A stretch of 64,000 nt of DNA from NCBI RefSeq assembly GCF_030384885.1, contig NZ_CP128613.1; one strand, given 5' to 3'. This stretch comes from Escherichia coli. Its GTDB lineage: Bacteria; Pseudomonadota; Gammaproteobacteria; Enterobacterales; Enterobacteriaceae. Within the stretch, counting starts at the first letter, position 1. Each line of letters opens with the position of its first letter. Shown piece by piece: positions 13,871-55,133 of this stretch. Under the pieces are notes generated by a model. The model was given only the letters and a program-made list of their open reading frames with translations. It did no database searches and was not told the origin of the DNA. The position numbers and the translations under genes were made by a program.

Positions 13871-16800
13871 TTATTTGATCTGCGCGTGCATTTCCTGCAC
13901 CGAAATTACTTTTTCAGTCGCATCGGCATTCAGCGCCATCGCGGTAGCGAAACCACCGTTCAGGGTGGTGTCATAATGCACTTTATATTGCAGCGCACTG
14001 CGACGAATCACGCGGGAGTCTTCAATCGCGCGACGGCCTGAGGTGGTGTTGATGATGTAGGTATATTCGCCATTCTTGATGCGGTCCTGAATGTGCGGAC
14101 GACCTTCATGCACCTTGTTCACCAAACGCGGGTTAATACCTGCTTCGCCCAGCACAATCGCTGTGCCGTGGGTCGCATCCAGCTCGAAGCCCTGTTTCAG
14201 CAGTTTTGCCGCCAGGTCTACCACGCGTTCTTTATCGCCTTCGCGCACGGAAAGCAGCGCACGACCGTGTTTCTTCATGGTGGAGTTGCTGCCCAGCTGC
14301 GCTTTGGCAAACGCTTCAGCGAAGGTGCGGCCCACGCCCATCACTTCCCCGGTAGAGCGCATTTCTGGCCCTAACAGCGGGTCAACGCCGGGGAATTTGT
14401 TGAACGGCAGCACCACTTCTTTCACCGAGTAATATGGCGGGATAACTTCTTTAGTTACGCCCTGCTCAGCCAGCGATTTGCCAGCCATCACACGCGCCGC
14501 CACTTTCGCCAGCGGTACGCCGGTGGCTTTGGAGACGAACGGAACGGTACGCGCCGCACGCGGGTTAACTTCAATCAGGTAGACTTCGTTGTTTTTCACC
14601 GCAAACTGCACGTTCATCAGACCGCGCACCTGCAATTCGAAGGCCAGTTTCTGCACCTGTTGGCGCATCACATCCTGAATTTCCTGACTTAAAGTGTAGG
14701 CTGGCAGAGAACATGCGGAATCACCGGAGTGTACGCCCGCCTGCTCAATATGCTCCATGATGCCGCCAATCAGCACCATTTCACCGTCGCAGATGGCGTC
14801 CACATCCACTTCTACCGCGTCATCGAGGAAGTGGTCCAGCAATACTGGTGCATCGTTAGACACGCTCACCGCCGTCTGGAAGTAGCGACGCAGGTCAGCT
14901 TCGTCATAGACGATTTCCATCGCCCGACCGCCGAGAACGTAAGACGGACGCACCACCAGCGGGTAACCAATCTCTTTTGCCTTCTCAACCGCCATTTCAA
15001 TAGCGGTAACGGTGGCGTTCGCCGGTTGTTTCAGTTTCAGACGGTCAACCGCATGCTGGAAGCGTTCACGGTCTTCCGCACGGTCGATAGCATCCGGGCT
15101 GGTGCCGATAACCGGTACGCCAGCGGCTTCCAGTGCGCGCGCCAGTTTCAGCGGGGTCTGACCGCCGTACTGAACGATAACGCCTTTCGGCTTCTCAATA
15201 CGCACGATTTCCAGCACATCTTCCAGGGTTACCGGCTCAAAGTAGAGGCGATCGGAAGTGTCGTAGTCAGTGGAGACGGTTTCCGGGTTACAGTTAACCA
15301 TGATGGTTTCGTAACCGTCTTCACGTAGCGCCAGCGAGGCGTGTACACAGCAGTAGTCGAATTCAATACCCTGACCGATACGGTTCGGGCCGCCGCCGAG
15401 CACCATGATTTTGTCACGGTCAGATGGGTTGGATTCGCACTCTTCTTCATAGGTGGAGTACATATACGCGGTGTCGGTGGCAAATTCTGCCGCACAGGTA
15501 TCCACACGTTTGTAGACCGGGTGCAGGTCATACTGGTCGCGTAGCTTACGGATTTCTGCTTCACGCACGCCCGCGAGTTTTGCCAGACGCGCATCGGCAA
15601 AGCCTTTGCGTTTCAGCTGGCGCAGGAAGTCAGCGTTCAGGCCAGTGATGCCCACTTCCGCTACTTTCTCTTCCAGGCGCACCAGCTCTTCAATTTGTAC
15701 CAGGAACCAGCGGTCGATATTGGTCAGATTGAAGACGCCGTCTACGGACAGGCCCGCACGGAACGCATCGGCGATATACCAGATACGCTCTGCGCCTGCG
15801 TCTTTCAGCTCGCGGCGAATTTTGGTCAGCGCTTCCGGGTCGTCGAGACTCACTTTCGGGTCGAAGCCAGTTGCGCCCACTTCCAGGCCACGCAGCGCTT
15901 TTTGCAGGGATTCCTGCTGCGTGCGACCAATCGCCATCACTTCGCCAACCGATTTCATCTGAGTGGTCAGACGGTCGTTAGCACCGGCGAATTTCTCGAA
16001 GTTGAAGCGAGGAATTTTGGTGACCACGTAGTCGATGGACGGCTCGAAGGAGGCCGGAGTACGCCCGCCGGTGATGTCGTTCATCAGTTCGTCGAGGGTG
16101 TAACCCACCGCCAGTTTCGCCGCCACTTTAGCAATCGGGAAGCCGGTCGCTTTCGACGCCAGCGCCGAAGAACGCGACACGCGCGGGTTCATTTCGATAA
16201 CAATCAGGCGACCATTTTTCGGGTTCACCGCAAACTGGACGTTGGAACCACCGGTTTCAACGCCGATTTCACGCAGTACCGCCATCGAGGCGTTACGCAT
16301 GATTTGATATTCTTTGTCGGTCAGCGTTTGGGCTGGCGCGACAGTGATGGAGTCACCGGTGTGGATGCCCATCGCATCGAAGTTTTCGATAGAGCAGACG
16401 ATGATGCAGTTGTCGTTTTTATCACGCACCACTTCCATCTCGTACTCTTTCCAGCCGATCAGCGACTCATCAATCAGCAGCTCTTTGGTTGGGGAGAGAT
16501 CCAGACCGCGGGCGCAAATTTCTTCAAACTCTTCGCGGTTATAAGCGATACCACCACCGCTACCACCCATGGTAAAGGATGGGCGAATAATGCACGGGAA
16601 GCCCACTTCAGCGGCAACTGCCAGCGCTTCTTCCATGGTGTGTGCGATACCAGAACGCGCAGTTTCCAGACCGATTTTCTTCATCGCCACGTCGAAACGG
16701 CGGCGGTCTTCGGCTTTATCAATCGCATCGGCGGTGGCACCAATCATGGTGACGCCGAACTCTTCCAGCACGCCCTGACGCTCCAGCTCCAGCGCACAGT

Positions 16801-18255: not shown

Positions 18256-18710
18256 AACACCCTCCAGAGAATATTCACTCACTTTATTTGCATATTAATT
18301 CACAATGATGACGTAAATCAATGCAAATCTGCTTACCGACGAATTTCTGGCAAACGGCGGCATTCTGGAGATATGGGCGCTAAAAGTCAACTTAATGGCG
18401 GGATTTTTTATATTATTTTATAGCTCATGCATGTTTTACAGGCATTAAGCGACAAAAAGATCATATAACCCGTTCTGGAAAACGCTTGCGCAGCAAGAAG
18501 ATTGCATAAAATCAAAACGCGTAGAAAAAAGTGGACCAAATGGTCAAAATTTACATTAAAACAACAAAAACAGAAGCGAAAACATGTTATTTTTAGCATG
18601 TTCCATGCTTTTATAAATAAAAAACTCAAAATAAAAGGGCTAAAAATTAAAGCCCTTTACAATCAATATATTAAATATGTTATTTTTGCATCATCACAAA
18701 TGTTTTGTGG

Positions 18711-39154: not shown

Positions 39155-39659
39155 ATAATATGATCTCCATTCATTGTTTTTATGGTTCCATAGAAATCAA
39201 TACATCAGATAATTCATTTTTATTAAGAATGACCAGGCCAGTATATTTAAAGATGACTATCGAAGCGTGATGAAGATCGCAGATTACTTTTGCGAACGGG
39301 CGGAGAGATATCGTGTTTCAGAAAATGTGTCTATTTTAAATATCACCCTTTGATTTATAGGCATTTTTCATGATGAACTTAGCATTGACTGCTGAACGTA
39401 TTTCTTTGTCTCTCTATAGTATTACACTAACCTTTAATAATTAATTTCCTTTAGCTATTCACTTTTGATAGAGGAAAACACCTTTTTTTGTGAATCCCTG
39501 ATATATTTAAGTTAAATAAATTGATGTATTGAAATATTATTCCGTAAAAATGCGAGGCGTCTTCAGAAAAAGAATTGATAAAACAGAAGTGAATTAAAAG
39601 CGCTGTATAATAGCGGCGAGTGCTTGAGGCTATCTGTCTCAGGCATTAGCTGAACGGCA

Positions 39660-39720
39660 GATAGAGAAAAGCCCCGAGTGATATTTTACCATCAACCCGA
39701 GGCCCCCTATATGCTGAACA
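39660..39720 (-). ncRNA. sokC: Sok-type antisense RNA (sokC) opposing the mokC translation start; approximate coordinates
   Basis: Placed by the known hok/sok architecture (antisense RNA overlapping the mok start region) and by offset from K-12 coordinates as I recall them; not verified by structure prediction. Confidence 0.4.
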
Positions 39721-39920
39721 CATGTAGAGTGCCTCTTACTGACCGTAAGGTCAAGGAGAAGAGAGCAATGAAGCAGCATAAGGCGATGATTGTCGCCCTG
39801 ATCGTCATCTGTATCACCGCCGTAGTGGCGGCGCTGGTAACGAGAAAAGACCTCTGTGAGGTTCACATCCGAACTGGCCAGACGGAGGTTGCTGTTTTCA
39901 CGGCTTACGAATCCGAGTAA
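39711..39920 (+). CDS. mokC: Regulatory overlapping reading frame MokC
   Basis: ORF starting MLNTCRVPLTDRKVKEKRA and running through hokC in the same frame, as in hok/mok/sok type I toxin-antitoxin loci. Confidence 0.75.
   Translation: MLNTCRVPLTDRKVKEKRAMKQHKAMIVALIVICITAVVAALVTRKDLCEVHIRTGQTEVAVFTAYESE
39768..39920 (+). CDS. hokC: Type I toxin HokC (Gef), small membrane toxin
   Basis: 50-aa peptide MKQHKAMIVALIVICITAVVAALVTRKDLCEVHIRTGQTEVAVFTAYESE recognised as Hok family. Confidence 0.9.
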   Translation: MKQHKAMIVALIVICITAVVAALVTRKDLCEVHIRTGQTEVAVFTAYESE

Positions 39921-40023: not shown

Positions 40024-41154
40024 TTAGCGAGTCAGGTCGTCGAAAAACTTCTTCACACCATCAAAGAAGCTCTTTGAGCGCGGGCTGTTGTGCTCGCCGG
40101 TTGGGCCACCGAAGCTTTCTTGCAGCTCTTGCAGCAGCTGTTTCTGCTTCTCGTTCAGGCCTACCGGTGTTTCGACGACAACGCGGCACAGCAAATCACC
40201 CTGTGCGCCACCGCGGACAGACTTGACGCCTTTACCGCGCATACGGAACAGCTTACCGGTCTGGGTTTCGCCAGGCACTTTCAGTTTGACGCGACCATCA
40301 AGAGTCGGTACTTCGATTTCGCCACCCAGCGCCGCCATAGCGAAGTTGATCGGGACTTCGCAATACAGGTTGTTGCCTTCACGCTCGAAAATCGGGTGCT
40401 GTTTAACCTGAACCTGAACGTACAGATCGCCTGCCGGTGCGCCATGCTCGCCCGCTTCACCTTCGCCCGCAAGACGGATGCGGTCTCCAGTGTCCACTCC
40501 TGCCGGGATTTTAACGGACAGCGTTTTGCTGCGCTCAACACGACCATGACCATGACATTTGTTGCACGGATCTTTGATCAGCGTACCGCGGCCCTGACAG
40601 TGTGGACAGGTCTGCTGTACAGCGAAGAAGCCCTGGCGCATCTGCACCTGACCAGAACCATGGCAGGTCGGACAGGTCTGCGGCTGTGTACCTGGTTTTG
40701 CACCGCTACCGTGGCAAACGTCACACTCTTCCAGAGTCGGAATGCGGATCTCTTTGGTCACGCCACGTACAGCTTCTTCGAGGGTGAGCTCCATGTTATA
40801 GCGTAAATCAGCACCGCGCGCCGCACGTTGACGACCACGTCCGCCGCCAAAAATATCGCCGAAAACGTCACCAAAAATATCGCTGAAGTCTGCGCCGCCG
40901 CCAAAACCGCCGCCGCCCATGCCGCCTTGCTCAAAAGCAGCATGACCATACTGATCGTATGCCGCACGTTTTTGCGAGTCGGTCAGAACTTCATAAGCTT
41001 CCTTGATCTCTTTAAATTTCGCCTCGGCCTCTTTGTCACCCTGGTTACGGTCCGGGTGGTATTTCATGGCCAGGCGTTTGTAGGCCTTTTTGATTTCACG
41101 CTCTTCCGCTGTTTTGGAAACGCCTAAAATCTCGTAATAATCTTGCTTAGCCAT
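40024..41154 (-). CDS. dnaJ: Chaperone DnaJ (Hsp40)
   Basis: Start at ATG 41152-41154 ([37 protein letters not shown]…), J-domain HPD motif, Gly-rich linker, four CxxCxGxG zinc-finger repeats; 1131 bp. Confidence 0.97.
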
Positions 41155-41242
41155 CTTTTTTAAATTGCCCCTAGATGAATGCACGGGCGGAGAGGAAATT
41201 CCCCTTCGCCCGTGTCAGTATAATTACCCGTTTATAGGGCGA
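41155..41242 (-). ncRNA. Possible small RNA in the dnaK-dnaJ intergenic space (tpke11-like); existence uncertain
   Basis: Position only: from memory a small RNA has been annotated in the dnaK-dnaJ spacer in K-12; hairpin CCCGTGCATTCATCTAGGGG…CCCTTCGCCCGTG-type structures visible but not evaluated. Confidence 0.25.
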
Positions 41243-43159
41243 TTATTTTTTGTCTTTGACTTCTTCAAATTCAGCGTCGACAACATCGTCATCTTTCGCG
41301 TTGTTTGCAGAAGCATCAGCACCGGCAGTCTGCTGCTGGGCATGTTGCTGCTGGGCGATTTCCATCAGTTTCTGGGAAACCTGTGCCAGTTCCTGCATTT
41401 TCGCTTCGATAGCGGCTTTGTCTTCACCTTTCAGAGCAGTTTCCAGTGCAGTCAGCGCAGACTCGATAGCAGTTTTGTCGTCAGCCGGCAGTTTGTCGCC
41501 TGCTTCTTCAACCTGCTTACGGGTGCTGTGCAGCAGATGGTCGCCCTGGTTGCGAGTCTGTACCAGCTCTTCAAACTTACGGTCAGCTTCGGCGTTAGCT
41601 TCTGCGTCGCGTACCATTTTCTGGATTTCATCTTCGTTCAGACCAGAAGAAGCCTTGATGGTGATCTTCTGCTCTTTACCGCTGTTTTTATCTTTCGCGG
41701 AAACGTGCAAGATACCGTCAGCATCGATATCGAAGGTAACTTCGATCTGCGGCATGCCGCGCGGTGCCGGGTTGATACCATCCAGGTTGAACTGACCCAG
41801 AGATTTGTTATCAGCTGCACGTTTACGTTCACCCTGCAGCACATGGATGGTTACCGCAGACTGGTTGTCTTCAGCGGTAGAGAACACCTGGCTGTGCTTG
41901 GTCGGGATAGTGGTATTTTTCGCGATCAGCGTCGTCATCACACCGCCCATGGTTTCGATACCCAGAGACAGCGGGGTAACGTCCAGCAGCAGTACGTCTT
42001 TTACGTCACCAGTCAGAACACCACCCTGAACAGCAGCACCGATGGCTACAGCTTCGTCCGGGTTAACGTCTTTACGCGGCTCTTTACCAAAGAATTCAGC
42101 AACTTTCTTCTGAACCATTGGCATACGAGTCTGACCACCAACGAGGATAACGTCGTCAATATCAGATACGGACAGGCCAGCGTCCTGCAGAGCAACTTTC
42201 AGCGGCTCAATGGAACGGTTCACCAGGTCTTCTACCAGGCTTTCCAGTTTCGCACGAGTCACTTTGATGTTCATGTGTTTCGGACCGGTCGCGTCTGCAG
42301 TGATGTACGGCAGGTTAACGTCGGTCTGCTGAGCGGAAGAAAGTTCGATTTTCGCTTTTTCTGCCGCTTCTTTCAGGCGCTGCATTGCCAGCGGATCGTT
42401 GCGCAGGTCAATGCCCTGATCTTTCTTGAATTCTTCAACCAGGTAGTTGATCAGACGGCTGTCGAAGTCTTCACCACCCAGGTGGGTATCACCGTTGGTT
42501 GCCAGAACTTCGAAGGTTTTTTCGCCGTCAACTTCGTCGATTTCGATAATAGAAATATCGAAAGTACCACCACCCAGGTCATAAACCGCGATAGTACGGT
42601 TGCCAGTACCTTTGTCCAGACCATAAGCCAGCGCAGCTGCGGTCGGTTCGTTGATGATACGTTTTACTTCCAGACCAGCGATACGGCCTGCGTCTTTGGT
42701 TGCCTGACGCTGAGCATCGTTAAAGTATGCCGGTACGGTAATAACAGCTTCAGTTACCGGTTCGCCCAGGTAATCTTCCGCGGTTTTCTTCATTTTTTTC
42801 AGCACTTCAGCAGAAATCTGCGGCGGTGCCATTTTCTGGCCTTTAACTTCGACCCAAGCGTCGCCGTTATCAGCAGCAATAATTTTGAACGGCATGATGG
42901 AAACATCACGCTGTACTTCTTCGTCCTGGAAGCGGCGGCCAATCAGGCGTTTAATCGCAAACAGGGTGTTTTGCGGGTTTGTCACTGCCTGACGTTTAGC
43001 CGGCTGACCAACCAGAGTTTCACCATCCTGGGTATAGGCAATGATAGAAGGCGTGGTGCGATCGCCTTCGGCGTTCTCCAGCACTCGCGGAGTGGTGCCA
43101 TCCATAATCGCTACACAAGAGTTGGTAGTACCCAGGTCGATACCAATTATTTTACCCAT
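41243..43159 (-). CDS. dnaK: Chaperone DnaK (Hsp70)
   Basis: 638-aa [46 protein letters not shown]…. Confidence 0.98.
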
Positions 43160-43212
43160 CTAAACGTCTCCACTATATATTCGGTCATCATGTGGTTGTG
43201 AGTCTGTAATAG

Positions 43213-49651: not shown

Positions 49652-49780
49652 ACCGGATGCGGCGTGAACGCCTTATCCGGCCTACAAAAGCATGCAGATT
49701 CAATATATTGCAGAATTAACGTAGGCCTGATAAGACGCGCCAGCGTCGCATCAGGCGCTGAATGCCGGATTGTTACCCGG
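49652..49780. repeat. REP/BIME-type extragenic palindromic repeats
   Basis: CCGGATGCGGCGTGAACGCCTTATCCGGCCTAC and GTAGGCCTGATAAGACGCGCCAGCGTCGCATCAGGCGC units between yaaA and yaaX. Confidence 0.75.
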
Positions 49781-54984: not shown

Positions 54985-55014
54985 GGTTGTTACCTCGTTA
55001 CCTTTGGTCGAAAA

Positions 55015-55064
55015 AAAAGCCCGCACTGTCAGGTGCGGGCTTTTTTCTGTGTTTCCTGTACGCG
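55015..55064 (-). promoter_or_regulatory. thr operon attenuator (terminator hairpin between thrL and thrA)
   Basis: GC-rich hairpin (CAGCCCGCACC…GGTGCGGGCTTTTTT on the thr strand) immediately after the leader peptide. Confidence 0.8.

Positions 55065-55133
<69 letters not shown>

Follow-up and report, generated by a model that had tools for sequence, protein, structure and literature searches.

The dnaK-dnaJ spacer and the tpke11 family

Is the spacer between the dnaK and dnaJ genes of Escherichia coli a small RNA gene, or is it a functional part of the mRNA which contains it? We have analyzed this question in a window of 64,000 nt from an E. coli genome (contig NZ_CP128613.1), where both genes are found in the minus strand. 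The dnaK gene (41243..43159) is the upstream and more abundant cistron; its 638 amino acid open reading frame, which agrees with its translation and with the RefSeq annotation, ends in a TAA stop codon at 41243-41245. The downstream and less abundant cistron is dnaJ (40024..41154, 376 amino acids), identified by the same means, and the list of open reading frames places its ATG start codon at 41154. The intercistronic spacer lies in the minus strand at 41155..41242, as given by the ends of both open reading frames, and the length of 88 bp stated in the original prediction is exact. It corresponds to 14080-14167 in E. coli K-12. In fact, the window is 100% identical to the K-12 MG1655 genome over 14050-14197, and through this alignment a K-12 coordinate X becomes 41242-(X-14080) in the window. 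Positions inside the spacer are numbered along the sense strand, nucleotide n being located at window coordinate 41243 - n.

According to the original prediction a small RNA had been proposed at this place in K-12, which is correct: it is tpke11 (Rfam RF02031), predicted as a conserved structured RNA by Rivas et al. (2001). The match to this family covers 41155-41232 in the minus strand with 69.6 bits (gathering threshold 43, E 2e-14), and it includes the full length of the model (positions 1-77 of 77). The placement is also that of tpke11, in the strand of both genes and between the end of dnaK and the start of dnaJ. The Tpke11 sequence in the literature consists of this spacer followed by the first base (A) of the dnaJ start codon, and the EcoCyc entry G0-8893 ('tpke11') extends over 14080-14168, that is, over the whole intergenic region. 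By every criterion which can be tested, the feature in the spacer belongs to the tpke11 family of Rfam: locus and sequence are the same, only the label differs. Rfam types tpke11 as 'Gene; sRNA', while our evidence favors an mRNA element which acts in cis.

Of 5426 complete E. coli genomes, 5424 contain the spacer sequence with at least 95% identity, always as a single copy. One variant appears within the species, and its sole change is in an apical base of the hairpin described below. A repeated element of the REP/BIME type is ruled out, with one copy in the window and one per genome in 5424 E. coli genomes. No RefSeq feature covers the spacer, either in MG1655 or in other E. coli genomes. 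The threshold for tpke11 is also passed by the spacers of Yersinia, Serratia, Photorhabdus, Pantoea, and Arsenophonus; those of Vibrionaceae and Shewanella fall below it. The spacer hairpin is already known in E. coli, and our results contain nothing new for this species.

A stable hairpin in the spacer

The main structure of the spacer is a GC-rich RNA hairpin, which we call P3 (41180..41217, minus strand). It is identified by an inverted repeat, by folding, by a hairpin covariance model and by covariation in 43 homologues. Its core stem is formed by CACGGGCG (41207-41214) and CGCCCGUG (41182-41189), as found by folding. Above the core there is an A.C mismatch, followed by an upper stem (AGGGGA/UCCUCU) and an AUU loop. 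P3 corresponds to nucleotides 29-61 of the spacer and starts 28 nt past the dnaK stop codon; its base may be extended by two additional pairs, U26-A63 and G27-C62.

GC-rich inverted repeats with hairpin potential had been claimed from the sequence alone, and this is borne out. The two arms of the inverted repeat (41182-41197 and 41199-41214) have 16 nt each, are 88% complementary and are separated by only 1 nt. The sense-strand RNA from 41177-41217 folds as a single hairpin with -25.2 kcal/mol (z -5.3), while shuffled sequences of this segment average -11.1 +/- 2.7 kcal/mol and none of 200 was as stable. The minimum free energy (MFE) of the entire spacer is -32.7 kcal/mol (z -4.3). The opposite strand also folds, because the element is a palindrome. 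The spacer holds five mutually complementary G/C segments, including nucleotides 1-6, which are complementary to the 5' arm of P3. Chance would give 0 copies of the motif ACGGGCG-N-CGCCCGT in the 64 kb of the window, where we find one, and the hairpin covariance model has a single match in the window, with 40.9 bits in the minus strand versus 32 in the plus strand.

P3 is a GC-rich stem-loop like those of intrinsic terminators, and it is followed by the tail CAUUCAUCU. There is no U tract (at least 5 U in 8 nt) right after the stem, and a consensus scan for hairpins followed by a U run detects no canonical intrinsic terminator in the minus strand of the spacer. A consensus scan of the same strand, which covered sigma-70 and not sigma-32, detects no promoter-like site which might serve dnaJ or tpke11.

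Conservation of the hairpin

A scan for DnaJ in species-representative genomes yielded 80 loci, which belong to Enterobacterales, Vibrionales, and Alteromonadales. In 78 of them we could place the ends of both genes and extract the spacer. All 78 spacers are long, with 56-269 nt, and none lacks a stable GC-rich hairpin (-16 to -29 kcal/mol). A common core, CGGG(C/U)G...CGCCCG, is present in 56 spacers, which include all those of free-living Enterobacterales, five of the six from Vibrionaceae, and those of Shewanella, Aliidiomarina, and Lacimicrobium. In the remaining Vibrionaceae spacer the hairpin is almost the same, with a single base changed in the 3' arm (UGCCCG), and the hairpin model still detects it. 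The core reaches Vibrionaceae and Shewanella, while the Rfam tpke11 model does not; as judged from this comparison, its conservation beyond the reach of the family may be a modestly new point. Shewanella and Vibrio copies of the hairpin have tails which are richer in U than the tail in E. coli. In Pseudoalteromonas, Alteromonas and their relatives a different hairpin is found at this position, with a true U run, GCGCGCCUUUUG, behind it.

The 43 distinct homologous hairpins have five core pairs (CGGGCG/CGCCCG) without any variation. Changes in the upper stem and loop are compensated, and a GNRA tetraloop is frequent. Paired bases are found in 87.9% of the cells of the alignment, and 8 of the 14 pairs show changes on both sides. 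There are 38 cells with double changes, as against 15.0 +/- 3.8 in shuffled alignments, none of which reached this number in 500 trials, and the covariation score is 0.213, with a maximum of 0.113 for controls with slid partners. G.U pairs are found where the antisense strand would give A.C; pair 13-26, for example, has 14 cases of G.U and none of A.C. The covariance model also gives higher scores to the sense strand than to the antisense strand, both in the window and in related loci, and in 323 kb of sequence from the 80 loci it detects no match outside the dnaK-dnaJ spacer. On the evidence of these alignments, P3 is a selected structure of the sense-strand RNA, as indicated by covariation, by the asymmetry of G.U pairs and by the higher sense-strand scores.

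These counts come from a hairpin-only alignment (A3) and a model-based alignment (A6). When RNAalifold is applied to a plain MAFFT alignment (A2), it only reports the invariant lower stem, since the upper stem and the 3' tail are misaligned there. Two other alignments based on a model (A4 and A5) were excluded from the counts, since they combined matches to both strands of the palindrome.

Published RNA ends and transcript levels

Several published data sets may be mapped onto the spacer. Adams et al. (2021, supplementary file 3) report an in vivo RNA 3' end by Term-seq (LB, OD 0.4) at position 14145(+) of K-12, described as 'internal to tpke11' and located 23 nt upstream of dnaJ; the site appears in their supplement only, and the main text is silent on it. 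It corresponds to 41177 in the minus strand of the window, 5 nt past the core stem of P3 and 3 nt past the extended stem. Coverage falls 3.1-fold at this site, from 1085 upstream to 351 downstream, and in the presence of bicyclomycin it goes from 1076 to 435. The Rho score (1.25) is not significant, and the intrinsic-terminator score is 4.33 (the authors consider scores of at least 3 as suggestive). An in vivo 3' end a few nucleotides past the stem, insensitive to inhibition of Rho, is what would be expected of an intrinsic terminator, although Term-seq cannot separate termination from cleavage followed by exonuclease trimming. The original prediction had named uniform coverage of the spacer, with no discrete 3' end, as the outcome which would speak against it; the published data show the opposite.

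The two cistrons also differ in abundance. According to Burkhardt et al. (2017), mRNA levels of dnaK and dnaJ are 2475 and 669 (3.7-fold), translation efficiencies are 1.86 and 0.84 (2.2-fold), and ribosome densities are 4613 and 561 (8.2-fold). The main dnaK band in the northern blots of Stead et al. (2011) has 2.1 kb and contains dnaK only. An upstream segment more abundant than the downstream one, with its boundary at a hairpin, is the pattern of a stabilizing element, and it is found here both in the 3.1- and 3.7-fold differences and in the 2.1-kb band. Stead et al. (2011) also found that dnaK mRNA increases in an RNase E mutant (2-fold) and in an RNase III mutant, and that dnaJ mRNA increases in the RNase III mutant only.

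In Salmonella, where the spacer has 85 nt, Chan et al. (2025) found dnaK mRNA at low Mg2+ to be 2.5-fold above the amplicons from the spacer and from dnaJ, while at high Mg2+ all three regions (dnaK, spacer, and dnaJ) gave amplicons of similar abundance. This similarity suggests that the step down from dnaK to dnaJ may depend on conditions. The same authors report that PhoP destabilizes the dnaJ part only and that no sequence like an intrinsic terminator is present. They raise tpke11 as a possible player, and favor a cleavage into mRNAs of different stability. A literature search for Rend-seq data on dnaK and dnaJ and for names such as 'dnaK 3' UTR' found nothing relevant.

A probable leaky terminator or 3' stabilizer

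We consider it probable, with some reserve, that the spacer is no separate gene and acts in cis within the dnaK-dnaJ mRNA, as a leaky terminator and/or a 3' stabilizer which sets the dnaK:dnaJ ratio. In this explanation, P3 would form in the nascent RNA as the operon is transcribed from promoters upstream of dnaK. Approximately two thirds of the steady-state transcripts would end a few nucleotides past P3 in a Rho-independent way, P3 acting as an intrinsic terminator which is leaky and whose U tract is degenerate; the 3' end at 41177 would be formed by termination, not by cleavage. Placed at the 3' end of the dnaK-only mRNA of about 2.1 kb, P3 would also shield it from 3' exonucleases, which implies a putative role in the stabilization of dnaK mRNA. 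The other third of the transcripts would run on into dnaJ, whose translation would be about 2-fold less efficient, starting from a weak element (AGGGG) similar to a Shine-Dalgarno (SD) sequence and located 13 nt before the AUG. The weakness and distance of this element would account for the lower translation of dnaJ. Together, these steps would lead to a synthesis of DnaK about 8-fold over that of DnaJ. What has been described as the tpke11 sRNA would be this same structured mRNA segment, or fragments from its decay, and the role as terminator or stabilizer would be what selection maintains.

A partial terminator which sets the dnaK:dnaJ ratio was one of the two possibilities raised in the original prediction. 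It agrees with the discrete, Rho-independent 3' end, with the drop of 3.1- to 3.7-fold and with the 2.1-kb band; the U tract is missing, and the end may be formed by termination or by processing. The other possibility, a small RNA, holds in the sense that it had been proposed before as tpke11. An independent gene is poorly supported, with unmapped ends and with neither a sigma-70-like promoter nor a terminator with a U tail detected in the consensus scans. The partial terminator is the better-supported reading of the two.

The comparison with known systems is informative. Leaky intrinsic terminators inside operons have, like P3, a GC-rich hairpin, a nearby in vivo 3' end, independence from Rho and partial read-through, and the mRNA of the upstream gene is about 3-4-fold more abundant, as it is here. 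On the other hand, canonical intrinsic terminators have a defining U tract which is lacking after the spacer hairpin. This absence in the tail, CAUUCAUCU, speaks against our main explanation. The increase of dnaJ mRNA in the RNase III mutant is an observation that a terminator or stabilizer does not account for.

Intercistronic hairpins may also cause differential decay within an operon by stabilizing its upstream part, as in the malE-malF REP sequences, the Rhodobacter puf operon and the pap operon. P3 shares with them a stable stem-loop, which closes the more abundant upstream segment at its 3' end, and the existence of an RNA with dnaK only. Unlike the malE-malF REP, the spacer hairpin is present in a single copy per genome and is not repeated; its protective effect is putative.

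Alternative explanations

The 3' end may also be explained by processing. Transcription would read through the spacer, RNase E or RNase III would cut at or below it, 3' exonucleases would trim the upstream product back to the protective hairpin, and the dnaJ part would decay faster. The lack of a U tract in the tail agrees with this possibility, and an end only 3-5 nt past the stem is what stalled exonucleases should leave. The effects of both RNase mutants on dnaK and dnaJ mRNA, and the lower stability of the dnaJ part alone under PhoP in Salmonella, where cleavage is favored, point in the same direction. RNase E reportedly cuts between RN and WUU, and the sequence directly past the stem, GC followed by AUU, would agree with this preference. 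However, the intrinsic-terminator score is above the cut-off of its authors, and genuine U runs are found at the same position in related clades. Besides, our search detected no report of a processed 5' end past the hairpin in the literature which it covered, and the main text of two papers which map RNase III sites does not mention dnaK, dnaJ, or tpke11. We regard processing, the main rival of a leaky terminator, as rather unlikely. A more distant candidate is a trans-acting sRNA, tpke11, freed from the spacer and pairing with other mRNAs, possibly with the help of Hfq. Several data have been brought in its favor: the conserved structure reported by Rivas et al. (2001) and curated in Rfam, an association with Hfq according to one compilation, gel shifts of pgsA, prlC, and yehU RNA fragments by an extended in vitro transcript, the attenuation in macrophages of transposon insertions in tpke11 in one S. 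Enteritidis strain, and the PhoP-dependent down-regulation of tpke11 in intracellular Salmonella reported by Chan et al. (2025). Nevertheless, the fitness effect of the transposons is not specific for an sRNA, because an insertion at this place would also have polar effects on dnaJ, and the RNA used in the gel shifts had been extended about 280 nt into dnaJ in order to match a northern blot. In the literature covered by our search no ends of a small transcript are mapped, the 3' end at 14145 being the only one reported, and the catalogued entry of tpke11 is simply the intergenic region. One paper counts it as a product of the processing of longer transcripts, with no transcription start site of its own, and the consensus scan detected no sigma-70-like site. 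P3 is not followed by the 3' U tail of an sRNA terminator, overexpression of tpke11 gave no biofilm phenotype, RefSeq does not annotate it, and the best-conserved single-stranded motif of its relatives, AUGUUAAGGG, is not conserved in E. coli. Hfq-dependent sRNAs which derive from 3' UTRs or are processed from mRNAs are similar in their origin within a longer mRNA and in the reported association with Hfq, but the spacer RNA has neither a U-rich 3' tail nor, in E. coli, a conserved free seed. As to targets, only gel shifts obtained in vitro with the extended RNA are reported for tpke11. We consider a trans-acting sRNA very unlikely, and a separate sRNA of this kind is a weaker reading than a cis-acting element.

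Other explanations concern the translation of dnaJ, whose only SD-like element is AGGGGC (41167..41172, minus strand, nucleotides 71-76 of the spacer). Its GGGG ends 13 nt before the AUG, with an A-rich run in between. The best anti-SD match has -5.6 kcal/mol with a long spacing, as computed on a related locus which differs from the window in 1 nt further downstream. At the other end of the spacer, nucleotides 1-7 (UCGCCCU) lie right behind the dnaK stop codon. The MFE structure pairs nucleotides 3-7 (GCCCU, 41236..41240, minus strand) with nucleotides 72-76, forming an outer helix, P1, around P3; P1 joins the region of the dnaK stop to the ribosome-binding site of dnaJ. GCCCU may also pair locally with GGGU, nucleotides 14-17 (41226-41229). 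The main function of the spacer might be the control of dnaJ translation: P1 would mask the SD element of dnaJ unless it is opened by a ribosome terminating at dnaK, or would bring that ribosome near the dnaJ start. In Enterobacterales the distance from the hairpin to the dnaJ ATG is constant (23-32 nt), while that from the dnaK stop to the hairpin varies (26-67 nt), and the sequence which best matches the anti-SD is a conserved UAAGGG/AGGGG. Over 44 distinct Enterobacterales spacers the pairing of P1 amounts to 85.7%, and changes in it are mostly tolerated as G.U. Of 43 spacers, 20 are predicted to have the GGG mostly paired, a number which falls to zero if the first 15 nt are deleted or shuffled. 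The 2.2-fold lower translation efficiency of dnaJ in Burkhardt et al. (2017) also agrees with this explanation. However, in the E. coli window P1 has just 5 bp and the GGG is predicted to be 70% unpaired. P1 shows weak covariation, double changes being found in 2 pairs and 5 cells of an alignment which had been fitted to the structure. The local hairpin with nucleotides 14-17, which competes with P1, is equally conserved, and neither the 3' end nor the step down in mRNA is explained. Translational control as the main function appears quite unlikely to us. An RNA thermometer, which would free the ribosome-binding site of dnaJ at heat-shock temperatures, is suggested by the presence of a pairable SD-like element in a heat-shock operon. 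The predicted accessibility of the GGG does not rise with temperature: values over 30-45 C are 0.73, 0.70, 0.63, and 0.58 in the window, with averages of 0.32, 0.33, 0.33, and 0.32 across 43 relatives. Moreover, the main hairpin is much too stable to melt. With a predicted accessibility which is flat or falling according to thermodynamics, a thermometer is disfavored, and we give it practically no credit. Neither the sRNA nor translational coupling is exclusive of a leaky terminator or 3' stabilizer; both are compatible with it.

A final possibility is that the spacer, more than an sRNA gene or a simple terminator, is a conserved intercistronic mRNA element with several helices, P1, an optional and variable hairpin P2, and P3, whose core would be kept for its sequence-specific recognition, whether by a protein, by an RNase, or by the transcription complex. 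From Enterobacterales to Vibrionaceae and Shewanella the P3 core, CGGGCG/CGCCCG, shows no variation. Stability alone would permit swaps between G-C and C-G in the core, and none occur. The invariance of the core across three orders exceeds what a terminator or stabilizer needs, and hints at an additional constraint. We consider a multi-helix element of this kind unlikely. Two further aspects of the comparison may be modestly new: the three-helix architecture suggested by the alignments, with an extra variable hairpin between P1 and P3 in many Enterobacterales, and the predicted folding, also in many Enterobacterales, of the ribosome-binding site of dnaJ onto the bases just past the dnaK stop.

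Significance of the spacer element

In summary, and as a lesson for genome annotation, 'tpke11' is probably a mislabeled mRNA element rather than an sRNA gene. DnaK needs DnaJ only in sub-stoichiometric amounts and both share one operon, so that an element which sets their ratio would be part of the balance of heat-shock chaperones. In fact, the 2025 study in Salmonella indicates that the dnaK:dnaJ ratio shifts under Mg2+ starvation, at or after the spacer. If the multi-helix element exists, it would couple both the translation of dnaJ and read-through in dnaKJ to the translation of dnaK, and the ratio of chaperone to co-chaperone would be adjustable, as it is at low Mg2+ in Salmonella.

Genomic surroundings of the dnaK-dnaJ spacer

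The strand opposite dnaK contains an open reading frame of 678 amino acids (41165-43201, + strand), which appears in the open reading frame listing and covers all of dnaK plus the spacer. It looks like one of the long antisense shadow reading frames that are typical of hsp70 genes, and it is not supported as a gene.

On the other side, a strong Rfam match to sok, of the hok/sok toxin-antitoxin system, is found about 250 nt 3' of the dnaJ stop (39618-39770, + strand, 114.6 bits). No insertion is present between dnaJ and sok in the window. In the K-12 reference MG1655, an IS186 copy is located at this place, so the window comes from an E. coli strain other than MG1655.

Other RNA families in the window were counted at the Rfam gathering threshold. 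They are the threonine operon leader (55010-55129, - strand, 121 bits), the sRNA ES003 (18303-18355, - strand, 87.4 bits) and ES036/CssrF (49686-49728, + strand), whose 38.7 bits are just over the threshold of 37.6. The threonine leader shows that the window is the reverse complement of the beginning of the E. coli chromosome map. The window's 64 kb contain no tRNA genes.

Distribution and variation of the spacer

The spacer region (41155-41242) is 100% identical to MG1655 and to O157:H7 and O55:H7 strains alike. Only 2 of the 5426 complete E. coli genomes searched lack a match. Three of the 5424 matches are in records labelled as plasmids, which are probably mis-assigned replicons.

In many other Enterobacterales a further hairpin lies after the dnaK stop region and before the conserved GC-rich hairpin. 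It is found in the related loci L017-L041 (for example, L022 1395-1500 and L030 1389-1500), which include Pantoea, Erwinia, Serratia, Yersinia, Pectobacterium, Photorhabdus, Xenorhabdus, Edwardsiella, Hafnia and other genera. Its sequence varies, the pairing is always kept. Escherichia, Citrobacter and their close relatives do not have it.

The Mangrovibacter spacer (L010 1254-1500) measures 247 nt and carries a large, structured insert 3' of the conserved hairpin, and a Vibrio spacer (L076 1232-1500) reaches 269 nt and contains three tandem copies of AGAACCT. In Pseudoalteromonas and Alteromonas (L056, L058, L060-L063, L068 and L078) the spacers have 187-214 nt, with two to four hairpins each. 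One of these, a canonical GC hairpin that runs into UUUU(G), occupies the same place as the enterobacterial hairpin, but the sequences are unrelated.
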